Source: Sphingobacterium sp. (GTDB lineage Bacteria > Bacteroidota > Bacteroidia > Sphingobacteriales > Sphingobacteriaceae). From it: 37,859 nucleotides of DNA. The stretch spans positions 1 through 37,859 of the forward strand of contig JASLCA010000287.1 in NCBI GenBank assembly GCA_030146225.1, in the 5' to 3' direction. The notes beneath the pieces are model-generated. The model ran no database searches, was not told where the DNA came from, and was given only the letters and a program-made list of their open reading frames with translations. The position numbers and the translations under genes were made by a program. How positions within the stretch are numbered: the stretch's first letter is position 1; every line of letters starts with the position of its first letter. This document shows positions 4,554 through 17,523 of the stretch, piece after piece.

Positions 4554-4664
4554 TTATAGATGGTTCACATATTTAGCATAAAGTCTAAACACGGCAATAG
4601 CAGTTACTAAAAGTAATACAGCCATTGATAGTGAGATCTCGGGGGTTAATTGTAAATCTTCCAT
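4554..4664 (-). CDS. Unannotated 36-aa single-TM peptide MEDLQLTPEISLSMAVLLLVTAIAVFRLYAKYVNHL
   Basis: Translated by hand, ATG at 4664 to TAA at 4554. Acidic N-terminus, hydrophobic core, basic C-terminus; A-rich start context (ACCTAAATTA-ATG); followed by the 4479-4518 hairpin. Confidence 0.65.
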   Translation of the reverse strand: MEDLQLTPEISLSMAVLLLVTAIAVFRLYAKYVNHL

Positions 4665-4801
4665 TAATTTAGGTATAAAAGCTGGTTAGTATTATCTTAT
4701 ACCATAAATATAATTAATCATTTGGACAAATAAAAGATTTTTTAAATCTTCCTAACAGAATAATTACAATTGAATGTCTCAATTAACAATAAATTAATCA
4801 A

Positions 4802-4809
4802 TATATTTG
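4802..4809 (+). promoter_or_regulatory. Bacteroidota -7 promoter element
   Basis: TATATTTG matches TAnnTTTG, 7 nt before the ATG at 4817; no clear -33 TTG. Confidence 0.6.
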
Positions 4810-4816
4810 TCAGGTA

Positions 4817-5254
4817 ATGAAAGTACTTGTATCCTATATTCTGCTCTTTTTCTATGTGCTAACATGCACAGGGGGATCGGTATATATGCACCAATGCAAT
4901 GGAGGCTCAATACATATTACCAAGGAAGATGCAGCAGATATGCACAAAAGTTGTCCGATGTGTGCAGAGCAACACAAGAACAATAAGGTTGATGCAAATA
5001 CCTGCCCAATGGATGAAGATCGTTCTTGTTGCAAGGACATCAAGATTGACTTAAAGAAAAGCAACGACGATGCTGAGCATGCTCAACATGCGCCTGTATT
5101 TTTAGGCTTATCCCCAGCAACAATTACTTTATTCTGGATTATAAGTTTTCAGATCAGTTCAGAAAACAATCTTAATCCGCCAACCATCGAAGCCCCGCAT
5201 CTGCTCGCCTCGACCAATCCCACCTATCTCATTCTGTGTAATTTCCGAATCTGA
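4817..5254 (+). CDS. Cys/His-rich HYC_CC_PP-like protein upstream of a TonB-dependent receptor
   Basis: N-terminal hydrophobic segment, HQC, CPMC, SCCKD, second hydrophobic segment, NPP and C-terminal CNFRI. Confidence 0.75.
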   Translation: MKVLVSYILLFFYVLTCTGGSVYMHQCNGGSIHITKEDAADMHKSCPMCAEQHKNNKVDANTCPMDEDRSCCKDIKIDLKKSNDDAEHAQHAPVFLGLSPATITLFWIISFQISSENNLNPPTIEAPHLLASTNPTYLILCNFRI

Positions 5255-5445: not shown

Positions 5446-8100
5446 ATGAAATCATTTTTTAAGGGGATAATAACCATCCTATTTATAAGCCTATACAGCG
5501 TATCTTTTGCGCAGAAGGCAAGCAGCATTAGCTTTGAAGTTGCAGGAAGCTGTGGCATGTGTAAACAAAGAATCGAAAAGGCAGCCAAAATCAAAGGTGT
5601 ATCCGAGGCAAGCTGGGATGTTGCCAGCCATAAGGCTACCGTAAAGTTTGACAGCAAAACAACCAATGCACAAGCTATTAAGCAGGCAATTGCAGATGCT
5701 GGTCATGATACTGATGAAATAAAAGCTAAGGATGAAGTCTATGAAAAACTGCATGAATGCTGTTTATATGATCGCCTAGATGGCGCTAAGGCTGATGCCC
5801 ATGCGGGACATAATCATAAAGCCGGTGAAGGCCATGACGATCATGCCGGACATAACCATAAAGCAGGCGAAGGCCATGACGATCACGATGATCATGAAGA
5901 CCATGGACACGAGCATATTATTCGTGGAGTCGTTGTAGAGGAAAATGCAAAAGGTGAATTAACGCCGATCCCAGGGGTCAATGTATACTGGTTAGAAAAC
6001 CCAAAAAATCAATTGCAGACAAATGCCAATGGCGTCTTTGATATCAAACATGAAAAAGGCAACAAGAAGCTAATCGTGAGCTTTGTGGGTATGAAATCCG
6101 ACACCGTAACCGTAAAAAACTTGCATGAAGTATTGGTAATCCAAGCCAAGAACAATGTTTTGGAATCTATTGTCGTATCTAGAAAACAACGTTCAAATTA
6201 TATCTCAAGCCTTACGCCTAACCGCGTAGAGACAATTACGGCTAAGGAACTTTTCAAAGCAGCTTGTTGTGATTTAAGTGAGAGTTTTGAGACCAATGCA
6301 TCTGTAGATGTGGTCAGCAGTGATGCCGTTACGGGATCAAAACAGGTACAACTATTAGGTCTAAGTGGTATTTACACCCAGCTAACGGTGGAAAACCTAC
6401 CTGGTCCAAGAGGATTTGCATCCCCACTAGGCTTAAACAGCATGGCTGGTCCATGGATTGAGTCCATTCAGATTTCAAAGGGTATGGGCTCTGTAGCCAA
6501 TGGCTTTGAGAGTATGTCAGGACAGATCAACGTGGAATTGAAAAAGCCACATAATACCGATAGACTACACTTTAATGCCTATGCAAATAATATGGGCAGA
6601 ACAGACATTAACCTAAGCGCTGCACAGAAAATCAATGACAAATGGTCGGTGGGCTTATTGCTACATGATAATTTTATGTACAATAAAACCATGAACTTCA
6701 GTGACAACGGATTTAGAGATATGCCTGTAGGTAATATTTTCTCAGGTATTAATAGATGGCATTATGAAGATGGCAAGGGATTAATCGCACAATTTGGGGT
6801 TAAATACCTTAATGATGATCGTACAGGAGGCCAGATTGACTTCAATGAAAAGACCGATAAGCTTACGACAAATAAATATGGATTAGGCTTTGACATTGAG
6901 CGCATTGAAGGCTTTGCAAAGATTGGCTATGTATTCCCGAATCATAAATTGCGTAGCATAGGCTTACAGCTATCTGCTTCCCACTACAAACAAGACAGTT
7001 ACTTTGGTCTAACCACCTACAACAACAAGCAAAATAGTGCTTATGCAAACTTTTTATACCAAGACGTATTAGGAAGTGTGAAACATAAGTACCGTGCGGG
7101 CTTATCGATCTCGCATGATAATATGAATGAGTCTATACTTCTTAACCAATTTGATAGAAAAGAGACTGTTTCAGGAGCATTTGTGGAATACACCTATGCC
7201 CCTACTGAAAACCTTGATGCAGTCTTAGGCTTACGTCAGGATTACAATAGTATCTATGGCTGGTTCACTACACCTAGAGCAGTAATCAGGTATGCACCTA
7301 CTGCTACCACAACCTTACGCCTAAGCTCTGGCCGTGGTCAACGTACCGCAAACATCTTTGCCGAAAACTTGGGTATTTTTGCATCCAGCAGACAAATTGA
7401 TTACACGAAATTAAGCAATACAAATGGTACAGCCTATGGCTTAGCGCCAGAGGTATCGTGGAATACCGGCTTTACCGTTGACCAAAACTTCCAATTATTC
7501 GGAAGAGAGTCGGGGATTTCATTAGAATTATTCCACAACAGCTTCTCCAACCAAGTTGTTGTAGACTTTGAAAATCCAAGAGAGGTTTCCTTCTACAACC
7601 TAGATGGCAAGTCCTTTTCCAACAGTATGCAGGCGGAGTTTCGCTTTATGCCAATACAGCATTTCGAAGCACGTATGGCATACCGTTATTTAGATGTGCA
7701 GACCGATTATCAAGCAGGTAGATTGGAGAAGCCATTAACAGCAAAACACAGAGGTTTTGTCAACTTAGCATACAACCTACATAGCGGCTGGAGCTTTGAT
7801 TACACCTTTAACGTAGTCGGCAAGAAACGTCTTCCATCTACAGCAAGCAACCCAGTTGAATACCAATTAGGCGAGTACTCAGACTCCTATGTTACAATGA
7901 ATGCACAGGTTACCAAAAGCTTTGGAGCGGACAAGAATTTCAGTGTATATATAGGTGGTGAGAACTTAACAAACTTCTACCAGAAGAACCCTATCCTAGC
8001 ATTTGAGGAGCCTTTTGGCAACCATTTTGACACCAACTTATTATGGGGTCCAGTTGCAGGTCGCTTATTCTACACAGGGGTACGCTATACCATTAAATAA
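5446..8100 (+). CDS. TonB-dependent receptor with N-terminal heavy-metal-associated domain and His-rich linker
   Basis: Signal peptide, GSCGMC HMA motif, HECC, His/Asp linker, plug with AACCDLSESFETN, barrel ending YTGVRYTIK. Confidence 0.9.
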   Translation: MKSFFKGIITILFISLYSVSFAQKASSISFEVAGSCGMCKQRIEKAAKIKGVSEASWDVASHKATVKFDSKTTNAQAIKQAIADAGHDTDEIKAKDEVYEKLHECCLYDRLDGAKADAHAGHNHKAGEGHDDHAGHNHKAGEGHDDHDDHEDHGHEHIIRGVVVEENAKGELTPIPGVNVYWLENPKNQLQTNANGVFDIKHEKGNKKLIVSFVGMKSDTVTVKNLHEVLVIQAKNNVLESIVVSRKQRSNYISSLTPNRVETITAKELFKAACCDLSESFETNASVDVVSSDAVTGSKQVQLLGLSGIYTQLTVENLPGPRGFASPLGLNSMAGPWIESIQISKGMGSVANGFESMSGQINVELKKPHNTDRLHFNAYANNMGRTDINLSAAQKINDKWSVGLLLHDNFMYNKTMNFSDNGFRDMPVGNIFSGINRWHYEDGKGLIAQFGVKYLNDDRTGGQIDFNEKTDKLTTNKYGLGFDIERIEGFAKIGYVFPNHKLRSIGLQLSASHYKQDSYFGLTTYNNKQNSAYANFLYQDVLGSVKHKYRAGLSISHDNMNESILLNQFDRKETVSGAFVEYTYAPTENLDAVLGLRQDYNSIYGWFTTPRAVIRYAPTATTTLRLSSGRGQRTANIFAENLGIFASSRQIDYTKLSNTNGTAYGLAPEVSWNTGFTVDQNFQLFGRESGISLELFHNSFSNQVVVDFENPREVSFYNLDGKSFSNSMQAEFRFMPIQHFEARMAYRYLDVQTDYQAGRLEKPLTAKHRGFVNLAYNLHSGWSFDYTFNVVGKKRLPSTASNPVEYQLGEYSDSYVTMNAQVTKSFGADKNFSVYIGGENLTNFYQKNPILAFEEPFGNHFDTNLLWGPVAGRLFYTGVRYTIK
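5800..5883 (+). repeat. 2 x 42-bp in-frame tandem repeat (HAGHNHKAGEGHDD)
   Basis: 5800-5841 and 5842-5883 encode identical peptides with synonymous differences only. Confidence 0.9.
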
Positions 8101-8215: not shown

Positions 8216-8246
8216 TTGTCAACACAACTTCCACTTAGTAGTTTTG
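8216..8246 (+). promoter_or_regulatory. Bacteroidota sigma70 promoter (-33/-7)
   Basis: TTG at 8216-8218, 20-nt spacer, TAGTTTTG at 8239-8246; ATG 6 nt downstream. Confidence 0.75.
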
Positions 8247-8252
8247 CGGCAG

Positions 8253-8627
8253 ATGGCATTTAAACTGGTTCACTTTTTTGTATTGCTTTGTTACATTAAT
8301 ATCCTCGCTTATGAAGTGGGGGGCAACAGCTATGTGGAAAATCGGACAAGCATATTAAATGGGGAATCCATCTTGGAATTTGTACTCGATGATGTCTTAG
8401 ACCTTCCTATTAGTAAATCTGCTTCTGATGTGGAGATTCTCTATGAAGAGTATAGAACCACGCAACAACAGGCCTACCTACTGCCTGCTATCTTAGTGGT
8501 ACTTTTCAGCTTTGGTCTTGCCATTGCTCCTATTGTAGAGCGCATAAAACACCCCCTGTATACCGGTAAAAAAAGACAGATAATACCAGGGTATTATGCA
8601 TTCCTCTACCGTTACAAACCCTTCTAA
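8253..8627 (+). CDS. Small two-hydrophobic-segment protein upstream of the RND operon
   Basis: Start moved to ATG 8253 (the TTG at 8244 lies in the promoter). Hydrophobic N-terminus, acidic middle, second TM, C-terminal PGYYAFLYRYKPF. Confidence 0.7.
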   Translation: MAFKLVHFFVLLCYINILAYEVGGNSYVENRTSILNGESILEFVLDDVLDLPISKSASDVEILYEEYRTTQQQAYLLPAILVVLFSFGLAIAPIVERIKHPLYTGKKRQIIPGYYAFLYRYKPF

Positions 8628-8884
8628 TTTAATTCTTCCTAATATTTTCCTAATTCATAGGATTCCTTTGCTGCAGAAGTAATTTCTAGGCTATGGCCCT
8701 TTGCTGTTCGGACTTTGGTTATCCAGGCAATACTGCCTGCTGTCGCTTTAATTAAAAGCCAGCGGGATAATAGTTTCCTCATTAACCTTTCAAGCAACAG
8801 CGACTAAGCCAGCGGGTGACAAATGCCTTGTCTAGAAAATCTTCCAGTGGTTTATTATTCAATCATTTTTTTAAATTTCATCAC

Positions 8885-9991
8885 ATGAAATCTATTTCAT
8901 TTGCATCCTCCCTATTGGGAGTCCTGCTTCTTGCGGGCGCTTGCGTAAGTAAAAGCTCGGAAAACAATCGTGAGCCTGCCAAGCAAGTTCCGGTAGGCAC
9001 CCTTACACGTATGGACACCATTATTTACAAGGAATATATCGCTGACATTCAGGCTACAAAAAATGTAGAATTAAGGTCCAGACTCAGCGGATTTTTAGAA
9101 AAAATATATGTAGATGAGGGCGCACTCGTCAGCAATGGGCAAGTCCTTTTCAAGCTTAATGACAGTGAGTACAAGGCTGATTTCGCCCAAGCGGAAGCCG
9201 TTCTAAATACCGCAATTGCCGAAGCAAAGAAGGTGGAGCTGGAGAAAGAAAGAACCAAAAGACTGGTTAGCAAAAATATTGTCTCAGAAACCGAAAGCGA
9301 ATTAATAAGTGTTCAGCATAAGGCCGCCTTGTCCAAGGTAGAGGAAGCTAGGGCAGCATTAAACCTAGCCCGTACAAAGCTCTCACAGACTTTAATTCGC
9401 GCTCCCTTTAGTGGACGTATAGACCGCATCTTGCTTAAAGAAGGTTCTCTACTAGCTGAGGGCTCACTTTTAACCAATATCTCGGATCTAAAAAGCCTGC
9501 ATGTATACTTTGATATTTCCGAATCTGAATACTTAGAAATGTCCAAAGATGCCAGCTTCAACGGAACCACAATTAAGGATCCTGTAAATTTAATCTTAGC
9601 CAATGGGCAAGCCTACCCGCATCAAGGGCAGGCACAGATTGTAGAAAGTGAATTTGAACCCAACACGGGCTCAATTTCCCTAAGAGCGAAATTTCCTAAT
9701 GCCGAAGGCTTGCTAAAACATGGTGCTTCAGGTCGTATTGGGGTCCCAATGTCTAGTGGCGAAAACTTGTTTATTCACCAAAAATCCGTATTGGAAATAC
9801 AAGACAAGACCTATGCCTACCTGCTTTTGGACAATGGCACGGTAAAGATGCATCCTTTTAAGGCTGGCGCTCGCGTAGGACATTTCTACATTGTAGAGGA
9901 TGGCTTAGACGAAAATCAAAAGATCGTATTTGAGGGTGTTCAAGCATTACGCGACGGCATGCAGGTGCAGGCAATAACGCAAAAGAAATAA
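8885..9991 (+). CDS. RND efflux periplasmic adaptor (MFP), lipoprotein
   Basis: Start moved to ATG 8885; LAGAC lipobox; VELRSRLSGFLEKIYVDEGALV and IRAPFSGRI lipoyl/hairpin motifs. Confidence 0.93.
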   Translation: MKSISFASSLLGVLLLAGACVSKSSENNREPAKQVPVGTLTRMDTIIYKEYIADIQATKNVELRSRLSGFLEKIYVDEGALVSNGQVLFKLNDSEYKADFAQAEAVLNTAIAEAKKVELEKERTKRLVSKNIVSETESELISVQHKAALSKVEEARAALNLARTKLSQTLIRAPFSGRIDRILLKEGSLLAEGSLLTNISDLKSLHVYFDISESEYLEMSKDASFNGTTIKDPVNLILANGQAYPHQGQAQIVESEFEPNTGSISLRAKFPNAEGLLKHGASGRIGVPMSSGENLFIHQKSVLEIQDKTYAYLLLDNGTVKMHPFKAGARVGHFYIVEDGLDENQKIVFEGVQALRDGMQVQAITQKK

Positions 9992-10013
9992 TGTCCTATC
10001 CAAATTAAAGAAC

Positions 10014-13000
10014 ATGTTTGAAACATTTATAAAACGACCGATATTATCCTTGGTCATATCGATTTTCATTACCCTCTTGGGACTGTTGGCCTTGTTTACC
10101 TTGCCCATCACGCAGTTCCCAGACATTGTCCCGCCATCGGTGGTCGTTACGGCCAACTATACGGGAGCCAATGCAGAGGTAAGTACCAATGCCGTAGCCA
10201 TCCCGCTTGAAAAGGCGATTAATGGCGTGGCCGGCATGACCGCTATGAATACGGTTACCACCAACAATGGCACCACCCTAATCCAAGTCTCTTTTAAGGT
10301 AGGTGTTGACCCCGATATTGCCGCAGTGAATGTGCAAAACAGGGTTACCACGGTCTTGGACGAATTGCCTGAGGAGGTAATTAGAGCTGGAGTAACCACT
10401 GAAAAAGAGGTTAACAGCATGCTGATGTACCTGAATATATACACCGATGATCAGACAGCCGACGAACGCTTTATCTACAACTTTACGGACATTAATATCC
10501 TAAAAGAGCTGAAGCGAATTGAAGGTGTGGGCTTTGCCCAAATTATGGGGATGCGGGATTATGCGATGCGGGTATGGTTAAAGCCAGACCGTTTAGCGGC
10601 CTATCAGATTTCCACTGATGAGGTTATTGAATCCCTACGCAGACAAAATATTGAAGCTGCCCCCGGGCAAACGGGAATAAGCTCGGATAAAATGGTCAAT
10701 ATGCAGCAGTACGTACTGCGCTATCCAGGTAAATTCTCAGAGCCAGAAGAATATGAAAATGTACCCATACGGGCTAATGTAGATGGATCCATCATTCGAA
10801 TTAAGGATATTGCCGAGGTAGAATTTGGTTCCTTAGATTACGAGATGGTATCCAAGACTGATGGTCGTCCATCGGCTTCCATTATGCTGAAACAATTGCC
10901 AGGATCCAATGCCCAAGAGGTTATTCAGCGGGTTAAAGACCGCATGGACGAACTCAAAGGCAGTAGCTTCCCAGCCGGCATGACCTATACCATGGGCTAT
11001 GATGTTTCTAGATTTTTAGATGCTTCAATCTCCAGCGTATTAATCACGCTTATCGAAGCCTTTATCCTAGTATTCTTGGTGGTCTTTATCTTCCTACAAG
11101 ATTTCCGAGCCACCTTAATTCCGATTTTGGCCGTACCGGTATCCCTAATTGGAGCACTCTTCTTTATGCAGATGATGGGCTTTTCCATCAACCTGCTTAC
11201 ATTATTTGCACTCGTGCTAGCGATAGGGATTGTGGTCGACAACGGAATTGTCGTCGTCGAGGCCGTCTATGCCAAGATGGAGGATGAACACCTCCCGCCT
11301 ATGGAAGCTACCTTAGCCGCAATTAAAGAAGTAGGAGGTGCGGTTGTGGCCATTACCTTAGTGATGTCCGCCGTATTTATTCCCGTCGCCTTTCTCTCGG
11401 GACCTGTGGGCATATTCTATAGACAGTTCTCCTTGACACTGGCCTCAGCAATTGTGATTTCAGGCATTAATGCCTTGACCTTAACGCCTGCATTATGTGC
11501 CTTAATCTTAAGATCACCACATGATCGCAAGCCTTCAAACAACTGGTTAGACCGCTTCTTTAAGGGCTTTAACAGGCGTTATGACAAGCTGGCAAACAAT
11601 TACAAGTCCCTCCTATCCCGAATAGCTGGACGTCGCGTTCTAACGCTACTCTTATTAGCTATTTTCTTTGTGGCAACCTGGGGAACAAGTGCCATCCTCC
11701 CTTCAGGCTTTATTCCTACAGAAGATCAAGGGATGGTATACTTAAGTGTAACCACGCCTCCAGGCGCAACTGTGGATCGTACCGAACGTATACTCGATGA
11801 AGTGGATGTGATCGCTAGAGATTTAAAAGCCGTAGAAACGGTATCCACCCTAGCAGGTTACAGCATCTTAACGGAGGTTTCAGGGGCCTCCTATGGTATG
11901 GGAATGATTAACTTAAAGACATGGAAAGATCGCTCCCAGTCTGTTGATGACATAATCAATGAACTTCGTGCCAAGACTGCACATATTGCCGATGCGGACA
12001 TTGAGTTTTTCCCTCCACCTACCGTTCCTGGATTTGGAAATGCGGCCGGCTTTGAGCTCCGTCTACTAGACCGCAGTGGTAGTGAAGATCTAAACCAGAC
12101 CGCCGCTGTGCTAGACAAATTTATAGAGGATCTAGCAGCTTCCGAGTCCATTGAGTCCGCAAGCTCCAGCTTTGATGTTAGTTTCCCACAGTATATGTTG
12201 GAGGTTGACTATGATTTGGCGGCTAAGAAAGGCATATCGGTAGAGAATGCCATGAATACCCTACAGACCTTAATGGGGAGCTTTTATGCGACCAACTTTA
12301 TCCGGTATGGACAGATGTACAAGGTTATGGTGCAGGCGGATCCGCAGTACCGTAAAAAGCCTGAGGATGTACTAAACCTTTTTGTGAAAACAAAAACTGG
12401 AGAGATGGTGCCTTACTCTGCATTTGTTAAGATGAATAGAATCTACGGTCCTGAACAGATTACCCGTTACAATATGTTTACCTCAGCGATGATCAATGGT
12501 CAGCCTGCGCCAGGTTACAGTACAGGGCAAGCCATTGAAGCCGTGCAAGCCTTGGCCGCAAAACTCCCACAAGGCTATAGCATTGAATGGGCCGGGATGA
12601 CCCGCGAGCAGGTAATTTCAGGCGATCAAGCCTTGTATATCTTTGCGCTCTGTCTGGTCTTTGTGTACCTCTTGCTATCAGCACAGTACGAAAGCTTCCT
12701 CCTCCCCTTGCCGGTAATCCTATGTTTGCCAGCAGGTATCTTTGGAGCCTTCTTATTCCTCAAACTCTTTGGCTTGGAGAATAATATATATGCACAAGTC
12801 GCACTGGTCATGTTGATAGGCTTATTAGGAAAGAACGCCATCCTTATTGTGGAATATGCTGTCCTCAAACAAAAGCAAGGTATGGATATCGTACAAGCGG
12901 CGATAGAAGGTGCTTATGCCCGTTTACGACCTATATTAATGACATCCTTTGCCTTTATTGCGGGTCTAATCCCCTTGATGATGGCTAGCGGTGCGGGAGC

Positions 13001-14567
13001 TATTGGCAACCGTACTATTGGTACCGCCTCAGTGGGTGGGATGTTAATTGGGACGATCTTAGGTGTTATTATTATTCCAGGATTGTACGTGCTCTTCTCT
13101 AAAAGAAAGAAACGCGTACCTAAAATACCATTAGCGATACTGGCGCTCTTTTTCTTTGCCATGTCCTGTACAGTGCCAAAACATATGCAGACTACAGCTC
13201 CTCAGGAGCTACCTGCTGAATTTGGCATGAATATCCCTAACGGTACAGACAGCTTAAGCCTCGCTAGCGAAAAGTGGCAGGAGGTCTTTAAAGATGCCCA
13301 GCTGAAACAACTTATTGATACTGCTTTGGCCTACAATTATGACCTCAAGCAAGCCATACAGCGTATAGAGCTTGCGCAGGCAAGCTTTAAACAACGCAAG
13401 GCGGCCCTGCTCCCGAGCTTGGATTTAGCTGCTGAAGCAGGCCTTCAGAAATATGGCTTTTATACAGAATCGGGCATTGGGAATTACGACTCCAACTTCT
13501 CGGAAAACCTGCAAGCGGATGAAAAGATTCCAGGACCTGCTATACCAGACTATTTTGTAGGCCTTAGAGCATCCTGGGAAATAGATATTTGGGGTAAAAT
13601 TAAAGCCCAAAAGCATGCAGCATTTAATAACCTATTGGCTAGCAATGAAGCAAGGCGCTTAATAGAGACGGAGCTAATTTCAAATATTGCCACCGCTTAC
13701 TATGAATTGATTAGTCTGGATGGCAAAATCCAAGTCTTTAACAGCAATATAGCGCTTAACGAAAGAGCTTTGGAAATTATCGAGTTGCAAAAGGAGGCTG
13801 GTCGCTCCTCCTTATTAGCCGTTGAGCAGTTTAAAGCGTTTTTAGCACATGCAAAGGCGCAACGCGCACATACGAAACAGGAGATTAGCCTATTGGAGAA
13901 TCATATCAACTACTTGTCTGGTCGATTTAACAAGCCTATTCTGCGTGCTACGCAACAGCTAACACAACTCAACCTCTTTGACAGCCTGCAAGTTGGCACG
14001 CCTATTCAATTGCTTGGCCAACGCCCAGATATTCGGGAGGCAACCTTTCAATTGATTGCTGCCGAACAGGAGATAAAGTCTGCAAGAGCAGCCTTCTTGC
14101 CAGCAATTGTCTTGTCGCCCTATATAGGGCTGCAATCCTTTAGCTTAAATAAGCTGGTTAATGTAGAAAAATCCCTCAGCTATGGCTTGATGGGCGGATT
14201 GTCAGCTCCACTCCTAAATCAGCAGGTGCTGAAAGCACAGTATGCAAGCTACAAAGCCAATTATGGCATCAACTTCTTGGAATATGAAAAACGCGTCTTA
14301 AATGCCTACAATGAGGTCTCTAGTGCAGTACAGATGCAAAGCCATATCCAAGAAAGACAGCAGTATATTCAGGAGCAGGTACTTGCCTTAAAGGCAGCAG
14401 TAGATGCGGCAGGGGAGCTATTTATAGCAGGACGCGTCTCCTACCTAGATATTATTACAGCTCAAAAGGATGCATTGGAAGCCCAAATTGATGAAGTGGA
14501 CATACAAAAAGAAAGAATTATAAATCAAATCCTTATCTACAAAGCCTTAGGCGGTGGATGGAATTAA
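10014..14567 (+). CDS. HAE1-family RND permease fused to a TolC/NodT-type outer membrane factor
   Basis: Residues ~1-1030 are AcrB/MexB-like (FIKRP, LPITQFPDIVPP, GIVVDNGIVVVE, KNAILIVE, RLRPILMTS); residues ~1052-1517 are OMF-like (SWEIDIWGK, QRPDIREA, YKALGGGW); no stop between them. Confidence 0.92.
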   Translation: MFETFIKRPILSLVISIFITLLGLLALFTLPITQFPDIVPPSVVVTANYTGANAEVSTNAVAIPLEKAINGVAGMTAMNTVTTNNGTTLIQVSFKVGVDPDIAAVNVQNRVTTVLDELPEEVIRAGVTTEKEVNSMLMYLNIYTDDQTADERFIYNFTDINILKELKRIEGVGFAQIMGMRDYAMRVWLKPDRLAAYQISTDEVIESLRRQNIEAAPGQTGISSDKMVNMQQYVLRYPGKFSEPEEYENVPIRANVDGSIIRIKDIAEVEFGSLDYEMVSKTDGRPSASIMLKQLPGSNAQEVIQRVKDRMDELKGSSFPAGMTYTMGYDVSRFLDASISSVLITLIEAFILVFLVVFIFLQDFRATLIPILAVPVSLIGALFFMQMMGFSINLLTLFALVLAIGIVVDNGIVVVEAVYAKMEDEHLPPMEATLAAIKEVGGAVVAITLVMSAVFIPVAFLSGPVGIFYRQFSLTLASAIVISGINALTLTPALCALILRSPHDRKPSNNWLDRFFKGFNRRYDKLANNYKSLLSRIAGRRVLTLLLLAIFFVATWGTSAILPSGFIPTEDQGMVYLSVTTPPGATVDRTERILDEVDVIARDLKAVETVSTLAGYSILTEVSGASYGMGMINLKTWKDRSQSVDDIINELRAKTAHIADADIEFFPPPTVPGFGNAAGFELRLLDRSGSEDLNQTAAVLDKFIEDLAASESIESASSSFDVSFPQYMLEVDYDLAAKKGISVENAMNTLQTLMGSFYATNFIRYGQMYKVMVQADPQYRKKPEDVLNLFVKTKTGEMVPYSAFVKMNRIYGPEQITRYNMFTSAMINGQPAPGYSTGQAIEAVQALAAKLPQGYSIEWAGMTREQVISGDQALYIFALCLVFVYLLLSAQYESFLLPLPVILCLPAGIFGAFLFLKLFGLENNIYAQVALVMLIGLLGKNAILIVEYAVLKQKQGMDIVQAAIEGAYARLRPILMTSFAFIAGLIPLMMASGAGAIGNRTIGTASVGGMLIGTILGVIIIPGLYVLFSKRKKRVPKIPLAILALFFFAMSCTVPKHMQTTAPQELPAEFGMNIPNGTDSLSLASEKWQEVFKDAQLKQLIDTALAYNYDLKQAIQRIELAQASFKQRKAALLPSLDLAAEAGLQKYGFYTESGIGNYDSNFSENLQADEKIPGPAIPDYFVGLRASWEIDIWGKIKAQKHAAFNNLLASNEARRLIETELISNIATAYYELISLDGKIQVFNSNIALNERALEIIELQKEAGRSSLLAVEQFKAFLAHAKAQRAHTKQEISLLENHINYLSGRFNKPILRATQQLTQLNLFDSLQVGTPIQLLGQRPDIREATFQLIAAEQEIKSARAAFLPAIVLSPYIGLQSFSLNKLVNVEKSLSYGLMGGLSAPLLNQQVLKAQYASYKANYGINFLEYEKRVLNAYNEVSSAVQMQSHIQERQQYIQEQVLALKAAVDAAGELFIAGRVSYLDIITAQKDALEAQIDEVDIQKERIINQILIYKALGGGWN

Positions 14568-15187: not shown

Positions 15188-15706
15188 CTATATACTTTTA
15201 AGGCCAGTGTCTACAGACCACTTGCCCTGTAATTTCAATATTTTCTCGAGCACATCCCGTACGCAGCCCGCGCCGCCTTTAAAAGGGGAAATATAGCTGG
15301 ATACCTGCTTAATCTCTTCTACAGCATCCTTTGGGCAAGCCGCAATGCCTACCGCTTGCATACAAGAAAGATCTGGAATATCATCCCCCATAAAAAGTAC
15401 TTCAGAAGCTGTAAAATGATGTTTCTCTAGTAAGTCTTGGAGCAGCTCCAGCTTGTTGGACACCCCCATATAGACCGCATGTATGCCTAAGCCTTCCAGT
15501 CTTTTGCGTACACCAAGGGAATTTCCGCCTGTAATAATGGCGACAAACAGTCCTTGCTTAACGGCCAATTGAAGCGCATACCCATCCTTAATGGAGAAAG
15601 TACGCAACTGCTCGCCCAGCTCGTTGACCTGTACCGTCCCATCTGTTAACACCCCGTCAACATCTAAGAAGACAGCTTTGATGCCAGCTAAATCTTTTAA
15701 TATCAT
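15188..15706 (-). CDS. kdsC: KdsC-family HAD phosphatase (KDO-8-P phosphatase)
   Basis: LDVDGVLTDG, KDGY, IITG, MGDDIPD, GGAGCVRD; ATG 15706 chosen because TTG 15712 lies within TACATTTG (15717-15710). Confidence 0.9.
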   Translation of the reverse strand: MILKDLAGIKAVFLDVDGVLTDGTVQVNELGEQLRTFSIKDGYALQLAVKQGLFVAIITGGNSLGVRKRLEGLGIHAVYMGVSNKLELLQDLLEKHHFTASEVLFMGDDIPDLSCMQAVGIAACPKDAVEEIKQVSSYISPFKGGAGCVRDVLEKILKLQGKWSVDTGLKSI

Positions 15707-15985
15707 TTTCAAATGTAATAAATCTCAATTTGATTCGCCCGCTTTTACTAGAATTATACCGGTGGCAGATGTCGCCACAAGTAAATCTGCGTATTTGACA
15801 TTGGGGAAGGTTAAAATTGCTGTTGAAATGTTAAATTTAGTCCCTAAAAAAAACAACAAATAGCATTAAAACACTTGCAAAAACGATTAAACTAATTCAT
15901 TTCTGCCAGTGAATTATCTAAAGCAGACAGTCTATCAAAAGAATGTCAGAAACTAGTTGTTTTCACAACTAAACTGTTAAAACTA

Positions 15986-16016
15986 TTGTCAGGTATTATT
16001 ATTTGCCTTATCTTTG
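15986..16016 (+). promoter_or_regulatory. Bacteroidota sigma70 promoter driving a non-coding transcript
   Basis: TTG 15986-15988, 20-nt spacer, TATCTTTG 16009-16016; no + strand ORF follows. Confidence 0.8.
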
Positions 16017-16020
16017 TGGT

Positions 16021-16146
16021 GTAATAAGAGCGGTACTTTTAACAGAAAGTAAATCTCAATATTACTGATAAAAATTGTCTTTTCATAATTTAGGTTTATA
16101 ATTGGTTAGTAGCAAACCCTGGCGCCCATCGTCAGGGTTTTGTTTT
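16021..16146 (+). ncRNA. Candidate ~125-nt small regulatory RNA
   Basis: Bounded by a consensus promoter and the terminator AAACCCTGGCG-cccat-CGTCAGGGTTT-TGTTTT; no ATG on the + strand; carries an anti-start-codon tract TCTTTTCATAATTTAGGTTTATAATTGGTTAGTA. The 5' end is estimated. Confidence 0.7.
16113..16146 (+). terminator. Intrinsic terminator of the candidate sRNA (may also serve the convergent gene)
   Basis: AAACCCTGGCG/CGTCAGGGTTT stem with one G-U pair; the T-tract is stronger on +. Confidence 0.8.
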
Positions 16147-16157
16147 ATACACGATTT

Positions 16158-17462
16158 TTATTCCATTGGTAAGCCTGCTAATGAGATTAGGGGCTTCTGC
16201 CCTTTTGACTTAAGCTTAAACTGGCTATTTATAGCGGTATAATCACTAAAAAAACCCGCATTTCTTAAGTAAAATGCATCCTTATTAATCCCGCCTCCAT
16301 AATCCATGCGGTATTGCTTGCGGGCAGTAGCATCCGCTGTAAATTTAGCCTCCTCACATGCATGCCAGTTTCCATTTACATCACAAACCCACTGATTGCT
16401 AAAGTTAACTTGACGCTCAAGGTCACCTTGACTGGGGATAAAATTCTCTAAGAAGGAGTGAAAACGCTTTAAGTACGTCTGGGTATTGGGGCGCAGAAAC
16501 TGAGCCACAAACTTCCATGCCCCCTCTTCAGGAGCGAAAAACCAGGCTGTATACTCGGTATAATTGTCCGCTACTGGACGTCCCCGCAAGAGGAACTTAT
16601 AGGTCTGGCCTGCCTGCCAATTGTAGCGCATATAGGACTGCCCTCCGGATCCTTCATTCCCAAATTCACCGGCATGTACCCCAGCCCCCTTCTTTACCAA
16701 GATGATCCGCTGTGCTTCAGGTATCTCCTTGGGATCGTCAGTGGTAAATGGGCTCCAAACGGAAAAGAGTATGCGACGCTCCTGGGCACTATTAACTTGC
16801 ATCCCGAAGTAGCCTTCTGCAAAACCATTGGCCATAAAGTAGGATCCGATAACATCTGAAGCCTGTGGAACGGTGACTTCATTGTAGAAGTATTCAATAT
16901 CATCTGCTACAGGGACCGCATAGCCCAGGTGCACCGAAGGACCTCTGCGCCCCCAGTAATAGAAATTATCCGTATTGTCGACTACATACCTAGCCGACTT
17001 AATCAGACTCGACTGCCCTGCTATCTGATAGGCCTTTACGCCTGGAAGCTCTCCTGATACACTGCTGAGTACAATAGCAAGATAGCCTGTGTCCTGCAAT
17101 CCTACTAGGCCTAGGTCTAACAGCCTATGACTATCTGAAGGCTTAACTGCAAGTTGAAACTTCTGCTGCAATACCGTTACGGACAGCTGAGCCGGCTTCT
17201 GAACCGCTCCCAAGGCTATTTGCAAGCGAAAGCTCCCTACCGCTGCGAAGCGAACAAAGGTCTTTAGTTCGCCCTGGGTAAGCCCAGGAAGCAAGCCTTC
17301 GCTTGCATGCAGCAACTTGCTTTCTACGGGCTTCTGCCAACTATTGCCCGCTATTGGAATCTGCACGCTAAGGGAGTCAATCGTCTTTGTTTGGGCTTTT
17401 AGCATACCGCTCAGCGGCAGCAAGAGGGCTGCTATAAAGAGCAGTCGTAATCTTTGTTTCAT
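16158..17462 (-). CDS. Secreted DUF5077/DUF3472-like protein
   Basis: Signal peptide from MKQRL; YWGRRGPSVHLGY, YFMANGFAEGYFGMQVNS, FGNEGSGGQSY, HSFLENF motifs recalled for this family. Confidence 0.8.
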   Translation of the reverse strand: MKQRLRLLFIAALLLPLSGMLKAQTKTIDSLSVQIPIAGNSWQKPVESKLLHASEGLLPGLTQGELKTFVRFAAVGSFRLQIALGAVQKPAQLSVTVLQQKFQLAVKPSDSHRLLDLGLVGLQDTGYLAIVLSSVSGELPGVKAYQIAGQSSLIKSARYVVDNTDNFYYWGRRGPSVHLGYAVPVADDIEYFYNEVTVPQASDVIGSYFMANGFAEGYFGMQVNSAQERRILFSVWSPFTTDDPKEIPEAQRIILVKKGAGVHAGEFGNEGSGGQSYMRYNWQAGQTYKFLLRGRPVADNYTEYTAWFFAPEEGAWKFVAQFLRPNTQTYLKRFHSFLENFIPSQGDLERQVNFSNQWVCDVNGNWHACEEAKFTADATARKQYRMDYGGGINKDAFYLRNAGFFSDYTAINSQFKLKSKGQKPLISLAGLPME

Positions 17463-17523
17463 ATTTAATAGCATGACTAGAATAAGGTAAGCCTAATTTT
17501 AGGCATAAAATTAGAGTAAAAAC

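Follow-up and report, generated by a model that had tools for sequence, protein, structure and literature searches.

A predicted small RNA gene of Sphingobacterium and its multicopy family, with a core that reads as the reverse complement of start regions

The stretch of DNA analysed here (the window; 37,859 nt, positions 1–37,859 of contig JASLCA010000287.1 of a Sphingobacterium sp.) carries a segment in which a promoter leads to a terminator with no reading frame between them, and part of this segment recurs over the start of a gene for a 36-aa membrane peptide. The question raised by the locus is whether the segment is an sRNA gene and, if so, whether the small membrane-peptide gene is its target. 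A first-pass annotation of this DNA had proposed a trans-acting translational repressor together with its target, either a regulon sRNA or one partner of a pair resembling a type I toxin–antitoxin system. To our knowledge, RNA regulation in the Bacteroidota beyond the gut Bacteroides is almost unmapped, and Hfq, ProQ and CsrA are, as far as we know, absent from these bacteria.

The sRNA locus and its orthologues

The promoter (TTG-N20-TATCTTTG) and terminator that the first-pass annotation had placed around an ORF-free segment of about 125 nt were both recovered (16009–16146, + strand), and the claim that there is no + strand ORF held as well, as no ORF of 60 aa or more overlaps 15864–16516 and there is no ATG in 16021–16146. 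The TTG at 15986 lies 20 nt upstream of TATCTTTG (16009–16016), which fits TAnnTTTG, the −7 box consensus of the primary sigma factor of Bacteroidota (as given in the accessible text of PMC7366714). The start of the RNA was placed at 16023 because the distance from the end of the −7 box to the first conserved base is exactly 6 nt in 49 of 181 loci of the family described below. The features of the locus are:

15954–15971, no strand assigned: inverted repeat TAGTTG-N6-CAACTA upstream of the sRNA promoter, with half-sites kept and a spacer that varies in most orthologues
15986–16016, + strand: promoter, with TTGTCA as the −33 region, a 20-nt gap after TTG and the −7 box TATCTTTG at 16009–16016
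16023–16146, + strand: predicted sRNA of about 124 nt, with a putative start and an end set by the T tail of the terminator
16028–16057, + strand: 5′ hairpin of the MFE structure, specific to the long-form orthologue group
16074–16113, + strand: conserved single-stranded stretch GUCUUUUCAUAAUUUAGGUUUAUAAUUGGUUAGUAGCA, including the family core (16081–16107) and the anti-start codon CAU (16081–16083)
16114–16146, + strand: intrinsic terminator with an 11-bp stem, the loop GCCCAUC and a U tail

The terminator stem (16114–16140) has 11 pairs, six of them G-C, followed by the T tail, and it is the sole terminator-like site in 15500–16400, where 0.7 would be expected; it lies on the + strand. The + strand RNA (16022–16146) folds at −30.1 kcal/mol (z −3.3) and the − strand of the same region at −21.4 kcal/mol (z −1.45). 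The −7 box is 64 nt upstream of the conserved stretch, ahead of the extra 5′ hairpin. Both neighbours are on the − strand, with genes for a HAD-type hydrolase and Maf to the left and for a DUF3472 protein to the right, so that the next gene after the sRNA (16158–17474) is convergent. The inverted repeat at 15954–15971 could be an operator or belong to the divergent HAD–maf promoter region.

Each of the 40 genus relatives searched gave a single best match, with 88–99% identity over 16061–16147. In an orthologue alignment of 31 sequences most keep TAnnTTTG with nn varying (TACTTTTG, TACCTTTG, TAAGTTTG, TAGATTTG, TACATTTG and others), and an upstream TTGAC is present in most; about nine rows have a one-off variant. 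The pairs of the 5′ hairpin are kept by differing sequences (GTAATC..GATTAC, AACAATTCC..GGGATTGTT and ATAATTC..GAATTAT; read by eye from the 31 orthologues and unscored), and the GUCUUUUCAUAAUUUAGGUUUAUAAUUGGUUAGUAGCA stretch is identical or almost so throughout. The terminator stem covaries (CCCTGGCG/CGTCAGGG, CCCTGGTG/CATCAGGG and CCTTGGCG/CGTCAAGG), the compensatory changes including a switch from C-G to U-A, and the stem has a G-U pair whose counterpart on the opposite strand would be an A-C mismatch. The subgroup to which the window copy belongs is marked by GUCUUYUCAU and the loop GCCCAUC; as it is also found in named Mucilaginibacter, Parapedobacter, Arcticibacter and Pedobacter records, we take it to be an old, single-copy branch of the family.

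An Rfam search and a check for covariation were both proposed in the first-pass annotation: no Rfam family was identified, and covarying hairpins were found in the orthologues and covarying stems in the family. Rfam 15 gave no match at or above the gathering threshold in the whole window, and the sub-threshold matches (E up to 10, in two regions) to RsaH, rnk leaders and MicC are chance hits driven by terminators. Twenty-four public runs were found, all as assembled contigs and three of them recorded as RNA. Assembled contigs from relatives (four public runs) cover only 16071–16147, the part conserved in relatives, and continue beyond both ends, which makes them uninformative on transcription. 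The −7 box whose free positions vary, the covarying 5′ hairpin and terminator stem and the orthologue present in every one of the 40 genus genomes all support the sRNA gene itself, and we consider 16023–16146 to be, with high probability, a real sRNA gene of a conserved family.

A multicopy family in the Sphingobacteriaceae

Elsewhere in the source genome (G000; 402 contigs, 3.27 Mb, 82.6% complete) the core CATAATTTAGGTTWATAATTGGTT is in each case followed by a differing G+C-rich hairpin and a T run and preceded by unrelated sequence. The core CAUAAUUUAGGUUWAUAAUUGGUU with a terminator hairpin carrying a CCC loop is present at at least nine loci of this genome, and a covariance model finds nine strong and two weak members. 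The motif at 16086–16111 to which the first-pass annotation had drawn attention is the invariant core of this multicopy family, something invisible from the window alone.

Across the genus the 24-nt core occurs 6–24 times per genome in 24 of 24 genomes. It was not found in 16 other families of the class, each represented by one genome, and a control with the pattern reversed had no matches. When up to three mismatches were allowed it was present in 74 of 121 genomes of the family, covering 22 of 37 genera, and the named records that contain it are from Sphingobacterium, Parapedobacter, Mucilaginibacter, Pedobacter, Olivibacter, Pelobium, Arcticibacter and Albibacterium. Two core-bearing contigs were labelled as a Janthinobacterium bin and were taken as mis-binned. 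The family model, run on 137 genomes of other families of the class, gave weak and mostly single matches in seven. A few of these (L203, L206 and L205) share UUUUCAUAGUUUAGGUUU and a C-rich loop, the other weak matches being heterogeneous; the few that share it are hints, at the sequence level, of a wider superfamily, with no bridge from them to the FopS RNAs of Bacteroides (discussed below) or to a multicopy family in those genomes.

The members look like genes. A run of at least four T follows the hairpin in 177 of 182 unique loci with enough flanking sequence, and in four of the remaining five the T tract was seen by reading to be interrupted. In an alignment of 116 distinct 3′ modules compensatory changes occur at all seven consensus stem pairs and the CCC of the loop (CUCCCCG or GCCCAUC) is at least 90% conserved despite differing stems; it should be noted that the modules were selected on the core, so that its invariance in this alignment is by construction, while stems and loop were not selected. 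For 57 of 181 loci the distance from the end of a perfect TAnnTTTG to the C of CAUAAUUU is 5–7 nt (exactly 6 nt in the 49 mentioned above), giving predicted RNAs that start at the invariant stretch and are about 65–70 nt long. In 33 loci the nearest box is 31–90 nt upstream, which are long forms like that of the window, and in 63 of the 181 there is no perfect TAnnTTTG within 200 nt. The density of the box is 0.0034 per nt upstream, compared with 0.0011 in the downstream control. As to strand, the hairpin is more stable in the sense orientation in 65 of the 116 modules and in the antisense orientation in 51 (p 0.24), which alone is not decisive; G-U pairs, counted across the family, speak for the sense strand (52 versus 22).

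Of 154 family loci, none falls within an ORF. Among 153 loci the next gene downstream converges on the element in 90 and shares its strand in 63; on the upstream side the gene is divergent in 95 cases and has the same orientation in 56. Many of the loci are orthologous to one another, and the counts are thus not independent. No partner gene is constant, and the family element is therefore as a rule neither a leader nor a 3′ UTR. A cis-regulatory leader or attenuator was rejected on these orientation counts and on the − strand position of the gene that follows the sRNA in the window. The opposite strand of the core ends in ATG, but the frames that follow it are of 2–23 aa and unconserved, so the ATG is part of the motif and not a start codon.

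It could be argued that there is no RNA gene here at all, and that the element is a DNA-level repeat (terminator-associated, a mobile miniature element or a − strand protein site) or else a cis-acting leader or attenuator. The element is indeed multicopy, three of the copies in the source genome are at contig ends, same-strand clusters (at least seven copies within about 30 kb) occur in relatives and some copies lie about 130–180 nt ahead of a same-strand gene. However, a promoter box at a fixed 6-nt distance, single-copy orthologous conservation with covarying stems, the preponderance of convergent downstream genes (the window included) and the unconserved frames after the − strand ATG all argue for an RNA gene, as does the lack of any match in 50,697 phage and 72,556 plasmid records, and we regard a repeat or leader as very improbable.

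An RNA family accounts better for these properties. Each member would have a promoter for the primary sigma factor, a single-stranded UUUCAUAAUUUAGGUUWAUAAUUGGUU and a terminator hairpin with a CCC loop. Short members of about 65–70 nt would begin right at the invariant stretch, and the window member would add the 5′ hairpin. The RNA from 16023–16146 (+ strand) would then be an independently transcribed, trans-acting sRNA of about 124 nt, and probably represents, as a single-copy orthologue found throughout the genus, one branch of a large multicopy Sphingobacteriaceae family. No description of this family was among the results listed by a full-text literature search, and it looks undescribed.

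The 36-aa gene as a candidate target

The recurrence of two blocks within the window was confirmed: TAATTTAGGT-N6-10-TGGTTAGTA occurs exactly twice, at 4665–4691 and 16086–16111, both on the + strand, and in none of 100 dinucleotide-preserving shuffles. On the − strand the first of these sites precedes a small gene, with the following features:

4554–4664, − strand: small gene for a 36-aa protein with one transmembrane segment (MEDLQLTPEISLSMAVLLLVTAIAVFRLYAKYVNHL), supported by homologues and synteny
4665–4691, − strand: leader of the 36-aa gene, with blocks UACUAACCA and ACCUAAAUUA complementary to the sRNA core, then AUG
4705–4712, − strand: candidate −7 box of the small gene, TATATTTA, agreeing at 7 of 8 positions

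With TATATTTA as the −7 box the leader would be about 35 nt long and hold both complementary blocks; in G355, whose orthologue is the closest by DNA match, a perfect TATATTTG lies at a similar distance from the small gene. The 36-aa ORF of the first-pass annotation (4664 to 4554, − strand, one hydrophobic segment) is real as judged by homologues in relatives. Seven genus genomes have homologues of the same length, 36 aa (E 1.9e-7 to 0.009), and with two weaker ones and one of 38 aa in G355 there are ten in all; five further matches (E up to 1) lie inside longer frames of 72–644 aa and were counted as chance. The homologues share ME.L....P..., a hydrophobic core and a basic tail, and the 36-aa protein has no match in Pfam or NCBIfam. 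The gene is predicted to add one more conserved, unannotated small membrane protein to those known. It always lies between trpA and a HYC_CC_PP-family gene, in the conserved order trpA, sORF, HYC_CC_PP, TonB receptor, maf, HAD, sRNA. The sRNA and the small gene are 4.5–6.2 kb apart in nine relatives, on opposite strands, and 11.4 kb apart here because an RND efflux cluster has been inserted into the trpA–sRNA block of the source genome. As the linkage of the two genes is explained by synteny, it is not evidence of a functional pair.

The first-pass annotation had predicted about 30 bp over the initiation region, and RNAduplex gives 36 pairs (with G-U pairs and bulges) between sRNA 16072–16112 and mRNA −28 to +17 (window 4692–4647). 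The energy of this duplex is −29.2 kcal/mol (z = −4.3), matched by one of 250 local shuffles, and the window paralogue is the best partner of the leader, seven distinct paralogues giving −18.0 to −26.5. The result is therefore better than shuffles in the source genome, but in all seven relatives that have both genes the duplex is at shuffle level (z −0.55 to +0.50, with 66–167 of 250 shuffles equalling the real duplex). In G355 the leader is quite different and gives −19.6 kcal/mol, a value without shuffle control. A DNA search with the 4665–4691 region (in 40, then 121 genomes) gave one real match, in G355, and this lies within the ORF; in the 121 other genus genomes nothing at the orthologous locus matched across the leader, and the matches of 24–39 nt touching it were few, at other loci and chance-like. 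The leader at 4665–4691 is not found by the family model.

When the 33-nt core was run against the whole source genome, the leader of the 36-aa gene came third of 176 non-family candidate sites (−29.0, −27.3 and −27.0), and the best of these sites (C25) precedes only a 12-aa frame. In a look-elsewhere control over the same 3.27 Mb, one of 12 shuffled cores reached −27.0 or better and two more reached −26.9. The sRNA was also paired with the start regions of the HYC_CC_PP and TonB-receptor genes of the source genome and eight relatives, and nothing was found (z −1.1 to +1.7). The match thus sits exactly over a real start codon, is lineage-specific and is within reach of chance genome-wide. It is doubtful that the 36-aa gene is a physiological target in this genome; it may be a lineage-specific one, and would not be the reason for the existence of the sRNA.

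These data bear directly on the idea of a dedicated pair, perhaps a trans-encoded one resembling type I toxin–antitoxin systems, in which the sRNA blocks synthesis of a membrane-damaging peptide. The long duplex over the initiation region, the shortness and hydrophobicity of the peptide, the location of both genes in one conserved block in nine relatives and the rank of the window paralogue as best partner would all fit such a pair. On the other hand, the complementarity is not maintained in the seven relatives and is unremarkable in G355 (there without shuffle control), no compensatory changes keeping the duplex are seen in relatives, the linkage is accounted for by the conserved gene order from trpA to the sRNA, and the same seed is carried by 6–24 paralogues per genome. 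In addition, type I toxins are usually of patchy distribution, whereas the conservation of the small gene is that of an ordinary gene in synteny. A dedicated pair, proposed in the first-pass annotation, is consequently unsupported, given the shuffle-level duplexes in the relatives and a shuffled core as good as the real one among 12, and we think it improbable. The toxin–antitoxin version was rejected on two grounds: antitoxin complementarity is not maintained (z −0.55 to +0.50 in seven of seven relatives against −4.3 here), and the genes neither overlap nor adjoin, being 11.4 kb apart here and separated by at least four unrelated genes in relatives.

Proposed mode of action and comparison with known systems

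Reverse-complemented, the invariant stretch reads as a start region (..AACCUAAAUUAUGAAAA), with a leader followed by a start codon and a lysine codon, AACCAAUUAUWAACCUAAAUU-AUG-AAA (extended ..ACUAACC…AUG-AAAA). In these genomes genes for exported proteins usually begin in this way, with such a leader, start codon and lysine codons. Many of the top matches to the core in the genome are aligned on an ATG. The first-pass proposal of a regulon sRNA that reads a leader and AUG motif comes close to the reading preferred here, in which the pairing itself would follow by analogy with FopS and GibS of Bacteroides. By this analogy the family may pair with translation-initiation regions and block initiation on a set of mRNAs, candidate targets being those for SusC-like transporters and other envelope mRNAs.

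The start regions of SusC genes do pair better with the core than those of other genes (45 SusC among 2241 called genes, Mann–Whitney p 1.6e-5), with five SusC in the best 50 and nine in the best 100, three shuffled cores giving 0–1 in the best 100. The reversed core, however, is likewise enriched for SusC, and when the leader alone was used (−45 to −1) the real core gave p 1.1e-6 and seven SusC in the best 100, but one of 25 shuffled cores gave a lower p and three of 25 gave seven or more SusC in the best 100. The enrichment can therefore not be taken as specific, as any G/U-rich RNA complements these A/C-rich leaders.

At least 24 invariant bases across paralogues and genera are more than imperfect seed pairing needs, and would suit a protein-binding platform too. 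In one alternative the stretch is such a platform, for a protein or an abundant RNA, and the RNAs of the family serve as sponges or decoys, or else as scaffolds with their specificity in the variable 5′ parts. This would agree with so many invariant bases in hundreds of copies and 22 genera, with the two direct GGUU repeats 11 nt apart and the conserved CCC loop, with the differing 5′ parts of the paralogues and with the binding of a protein by FopS RNAs through their 5′ part (described in the accessible text of PMC11697453). Against it, an RbpB-type RRM_1 protein (PF00076) was found in none of 26 genus genomes, a control Bacteroides thetaiotaomicron genome being matched; with a start at the invariant stretch, the RNAs of 57 of 181 loci would lack a variable 5′ part altogether; and the stretch holds the exact anti-start-codon context UUUUCAU. 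We consider a platform unlikely, although less so than a dedicated pair. Action of the family by pairing at start regions, which is suggested by the architecture of the RNAs and by analogy, seems to us somewhat the better bet, and the explanation as a whole, a FopS/GibS-like family sRNA acting at start regions, is one that we hold to be reasonably probable.

An invariant stretch of at least 24 nt in every genome of the genus and in most genera of the family means that this is likely to be a major regulatory layer. The genus that carries it is large and includes soil and clinical organisms, and the family would offer natural seed variants, together with candidate targets in the envelope and in nutrient uptake, in cultivable Sphingobacterium.

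Several known systems invite comparison. The guide RNAs of dCas12f–sigmaE systems and the hth-associated ncRNAs are also from Bacteroidota, some being near susCD and some of the systems occurring in Sphingobacterium (PMC13472631, accessible text). As described there, the guides have a structured scaffold and a variable 3′ guide, whereas the RNAs studied here have a conserved 3′ terminator and an unstructured conserved part, and identity with either class was rejected on this architecture. DonS-type cis-antisense RNAs of 78–128 nt lower the expression of susC homologues in polysaccharide utilisation loci (PMC7366714, accessible text). DonS is described as antisense or divergent to the susC that it controls, whereas the present family has no fixed neighbour and the window copy lies between the HAD/maf and DUF3472 genes. 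Like type I toxin–antitoxin systems, the locus combines a gene for a small hydrophobic peptide with a small RNA that is complementary to the start region of that gene; the differences are that the RNA belongs to a multicopy family and that the peptide gene is conserved and keeps its synteny.

GibS of Bacteroides is a conserved, single-copy RNA of 145 nt that shares the R1 seed of the FopS RNAs and pairs across the start codons of its targets (PMC7366714, accessible text); it has a non-canonical promoter and a second seed, R2 (PMC11697453, accessible text). Judged from these descriptions, a long single-copy RNA beside short paralogues resembles the relation between the window member and the short members here; the promoter differs, as the window RNA has a canonical −7 box.

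The closest likeness in design is to FopS itself. In the accessible text of PMC11697453 the FopS RNAs of Bacteroides thetaiotaomicron are described as 65–70 nt long, present in 12–15 copies per genome and transcribed from canonical sigma-ABfr promoters; a single-stranded conserved 5′ seed is followed by a terminator, the RNAs repress susC-like mRNAs by preventing translation through pairing at the start codon and are themselves counteracted by the RRM protein RbpB, and their conservation is reported, in that text, only within the Bacteroidaceae. When the printed 35-nt FopS consensus was compared with window 16076–16108, 26 of 34 columns were identical, and 13 of 5000 shuffles scored as high. 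Both families are multicopy (12–15 there, 6–24 here), both have TAnnTTTG just upstream of the conserved 5′ stretch (57 of 181 loci here, with the box at 5–7 nt), and in both a single-stranded 5′ stretch with CAU in U-rich flanks is followed only by a Rho-independent terminator. The size of about 65–70 nt is that of the short members here, the window member being about 124 nt with its 5′ hairpin, and SusC start regions are among the better-matching sites here too, though shuffled cores can do as well. The differences are that the present family belongs to another order of Bacteroidota, has a longer core with a second GGUU block and a conserved hairpin loop, and matched no family of Rfam 15, a release that may hold no FopS model. 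Since no RbpB-type protein was found in the 26 genus genomes, the Bacteroides circuit cannot be copied over whole.

The Sphingobacteriaceae family thus resembles FopS in how it would work, common membership being left aside. A more speculative proposal, which we put forward tentatively and rate well below the mode of action itself, is that it is its own branch of a Bacteroidota-wide superfamily of anti-start-codon sRNAs that share a UUUUCAU...UUAGGUUU seed and a terminator with a C-rich loop. This branch would have expanded to 6–24 copies per genome and would work without RbpB, with the CCC loop as a second contact, targets gained by drift of the leaders and the 36-aa gene freshly captured. 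If the two families were homologous, the principle of a seed complementary to the start codon would be old, phylum-wide and independent of RbpB.

Conserved sequences in and upstream of the sRNA

Two elements of the predicted small RNA gene (sRNA) and its upstream region stand out in comparison with its relatives:

16126-16128, conserved CCC of the hairpin loop (alignment A1, family 3' modules)
15954-15971, inverted repeat (TAGTTG-N6-CAACTA) lying some 40 nt upstream of the -7 box of the sRNA

The CCC of the terminator loop (CUCCCCG or GCCCAUC) is kept in at least 90% of the 116 family members in alignment A1 and the stems differ; this loop may be a second contact site. As the half-sites of the inverted repeat are kept across the sRNA orthologues while its spacer varies, the repeat may be an operator. 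In many members of the family, the region about 60-90 nt upstream of the core contains TGTTAA-N4-5-TGTTAA (for example at loci L014, L019, L023, L025 and L032, and in the members on contigs C88 and C111 of the window's own genome, G000). This direct repeat could be either a promoter of a second type or a site for a regulator.

Family copies and core fragments elsewhere

In some relatives the family forms same-strand clusters, with 7 to 10 or more copies within 30-50 kb, in which the copies are interspersed with duplicated genes that encode, among others, a 140-200-aa secreted protein and an ECF sigma factor. These clusters lie at:

G015:C14:402-430 kb
G016:C7:537-565 kb
G043:C1:703-755 kb

In G000 one member lies at the shared, identical ends of three contigs (C7:1-70, the end of C58 and the end of C90), and therefore next to a repeat at which the assembly failed. 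The same genome contains two fragments that match the core in antisense and have an ATG at their end, at C25:3944 (-) and C94:14637 (+), with frames after the ATG of 12 aa and 8 aa respectively. The hairpin is absent at both, and the fragments may be either family members that have decayed or sites that act as decoys.

Protein-coding genes upstream of the sRNA

The genes concerned are:

4817-5254, HYC_CC_PP-family gene, -7 box within 4806-4819
5446-8100 (+), TonB-dependent receptor with an N-terminal heavy-metal-associated (HMA) domain followed by CarboxypepD_reg, Plug and barrel domains
8244-14567, a 127-aa gene, an RND adaptor and a permease-OMF gene

The -7 box of the HYC_CC_PP-family gene is TATATTTG in the window and TATCTTTG or TACCTTTG in relatives. 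Only 4-6 nt separate the end of this box from the ATG, a short spacing that is kept in relatives (loci L189, L191-L195 and L211), and the predicted mRNA would be leaderless or almost so.

The three genes at 8244-14567 lie between the TonB receptor gene and maf in G000 only. The last of them, a 1517-aa ORF (10014-14567, +), contains an RND efflux permease (residues 1-1035) followed by a NodT-type outer-membrane factor (residues 1043-1516), and is either a natural fusion or the product of loss of the stop codon between two genes. Because the receptor gene adjoins maf directly in 7 relatives, the efflux genes of G000 appear to have been inserted between the two.
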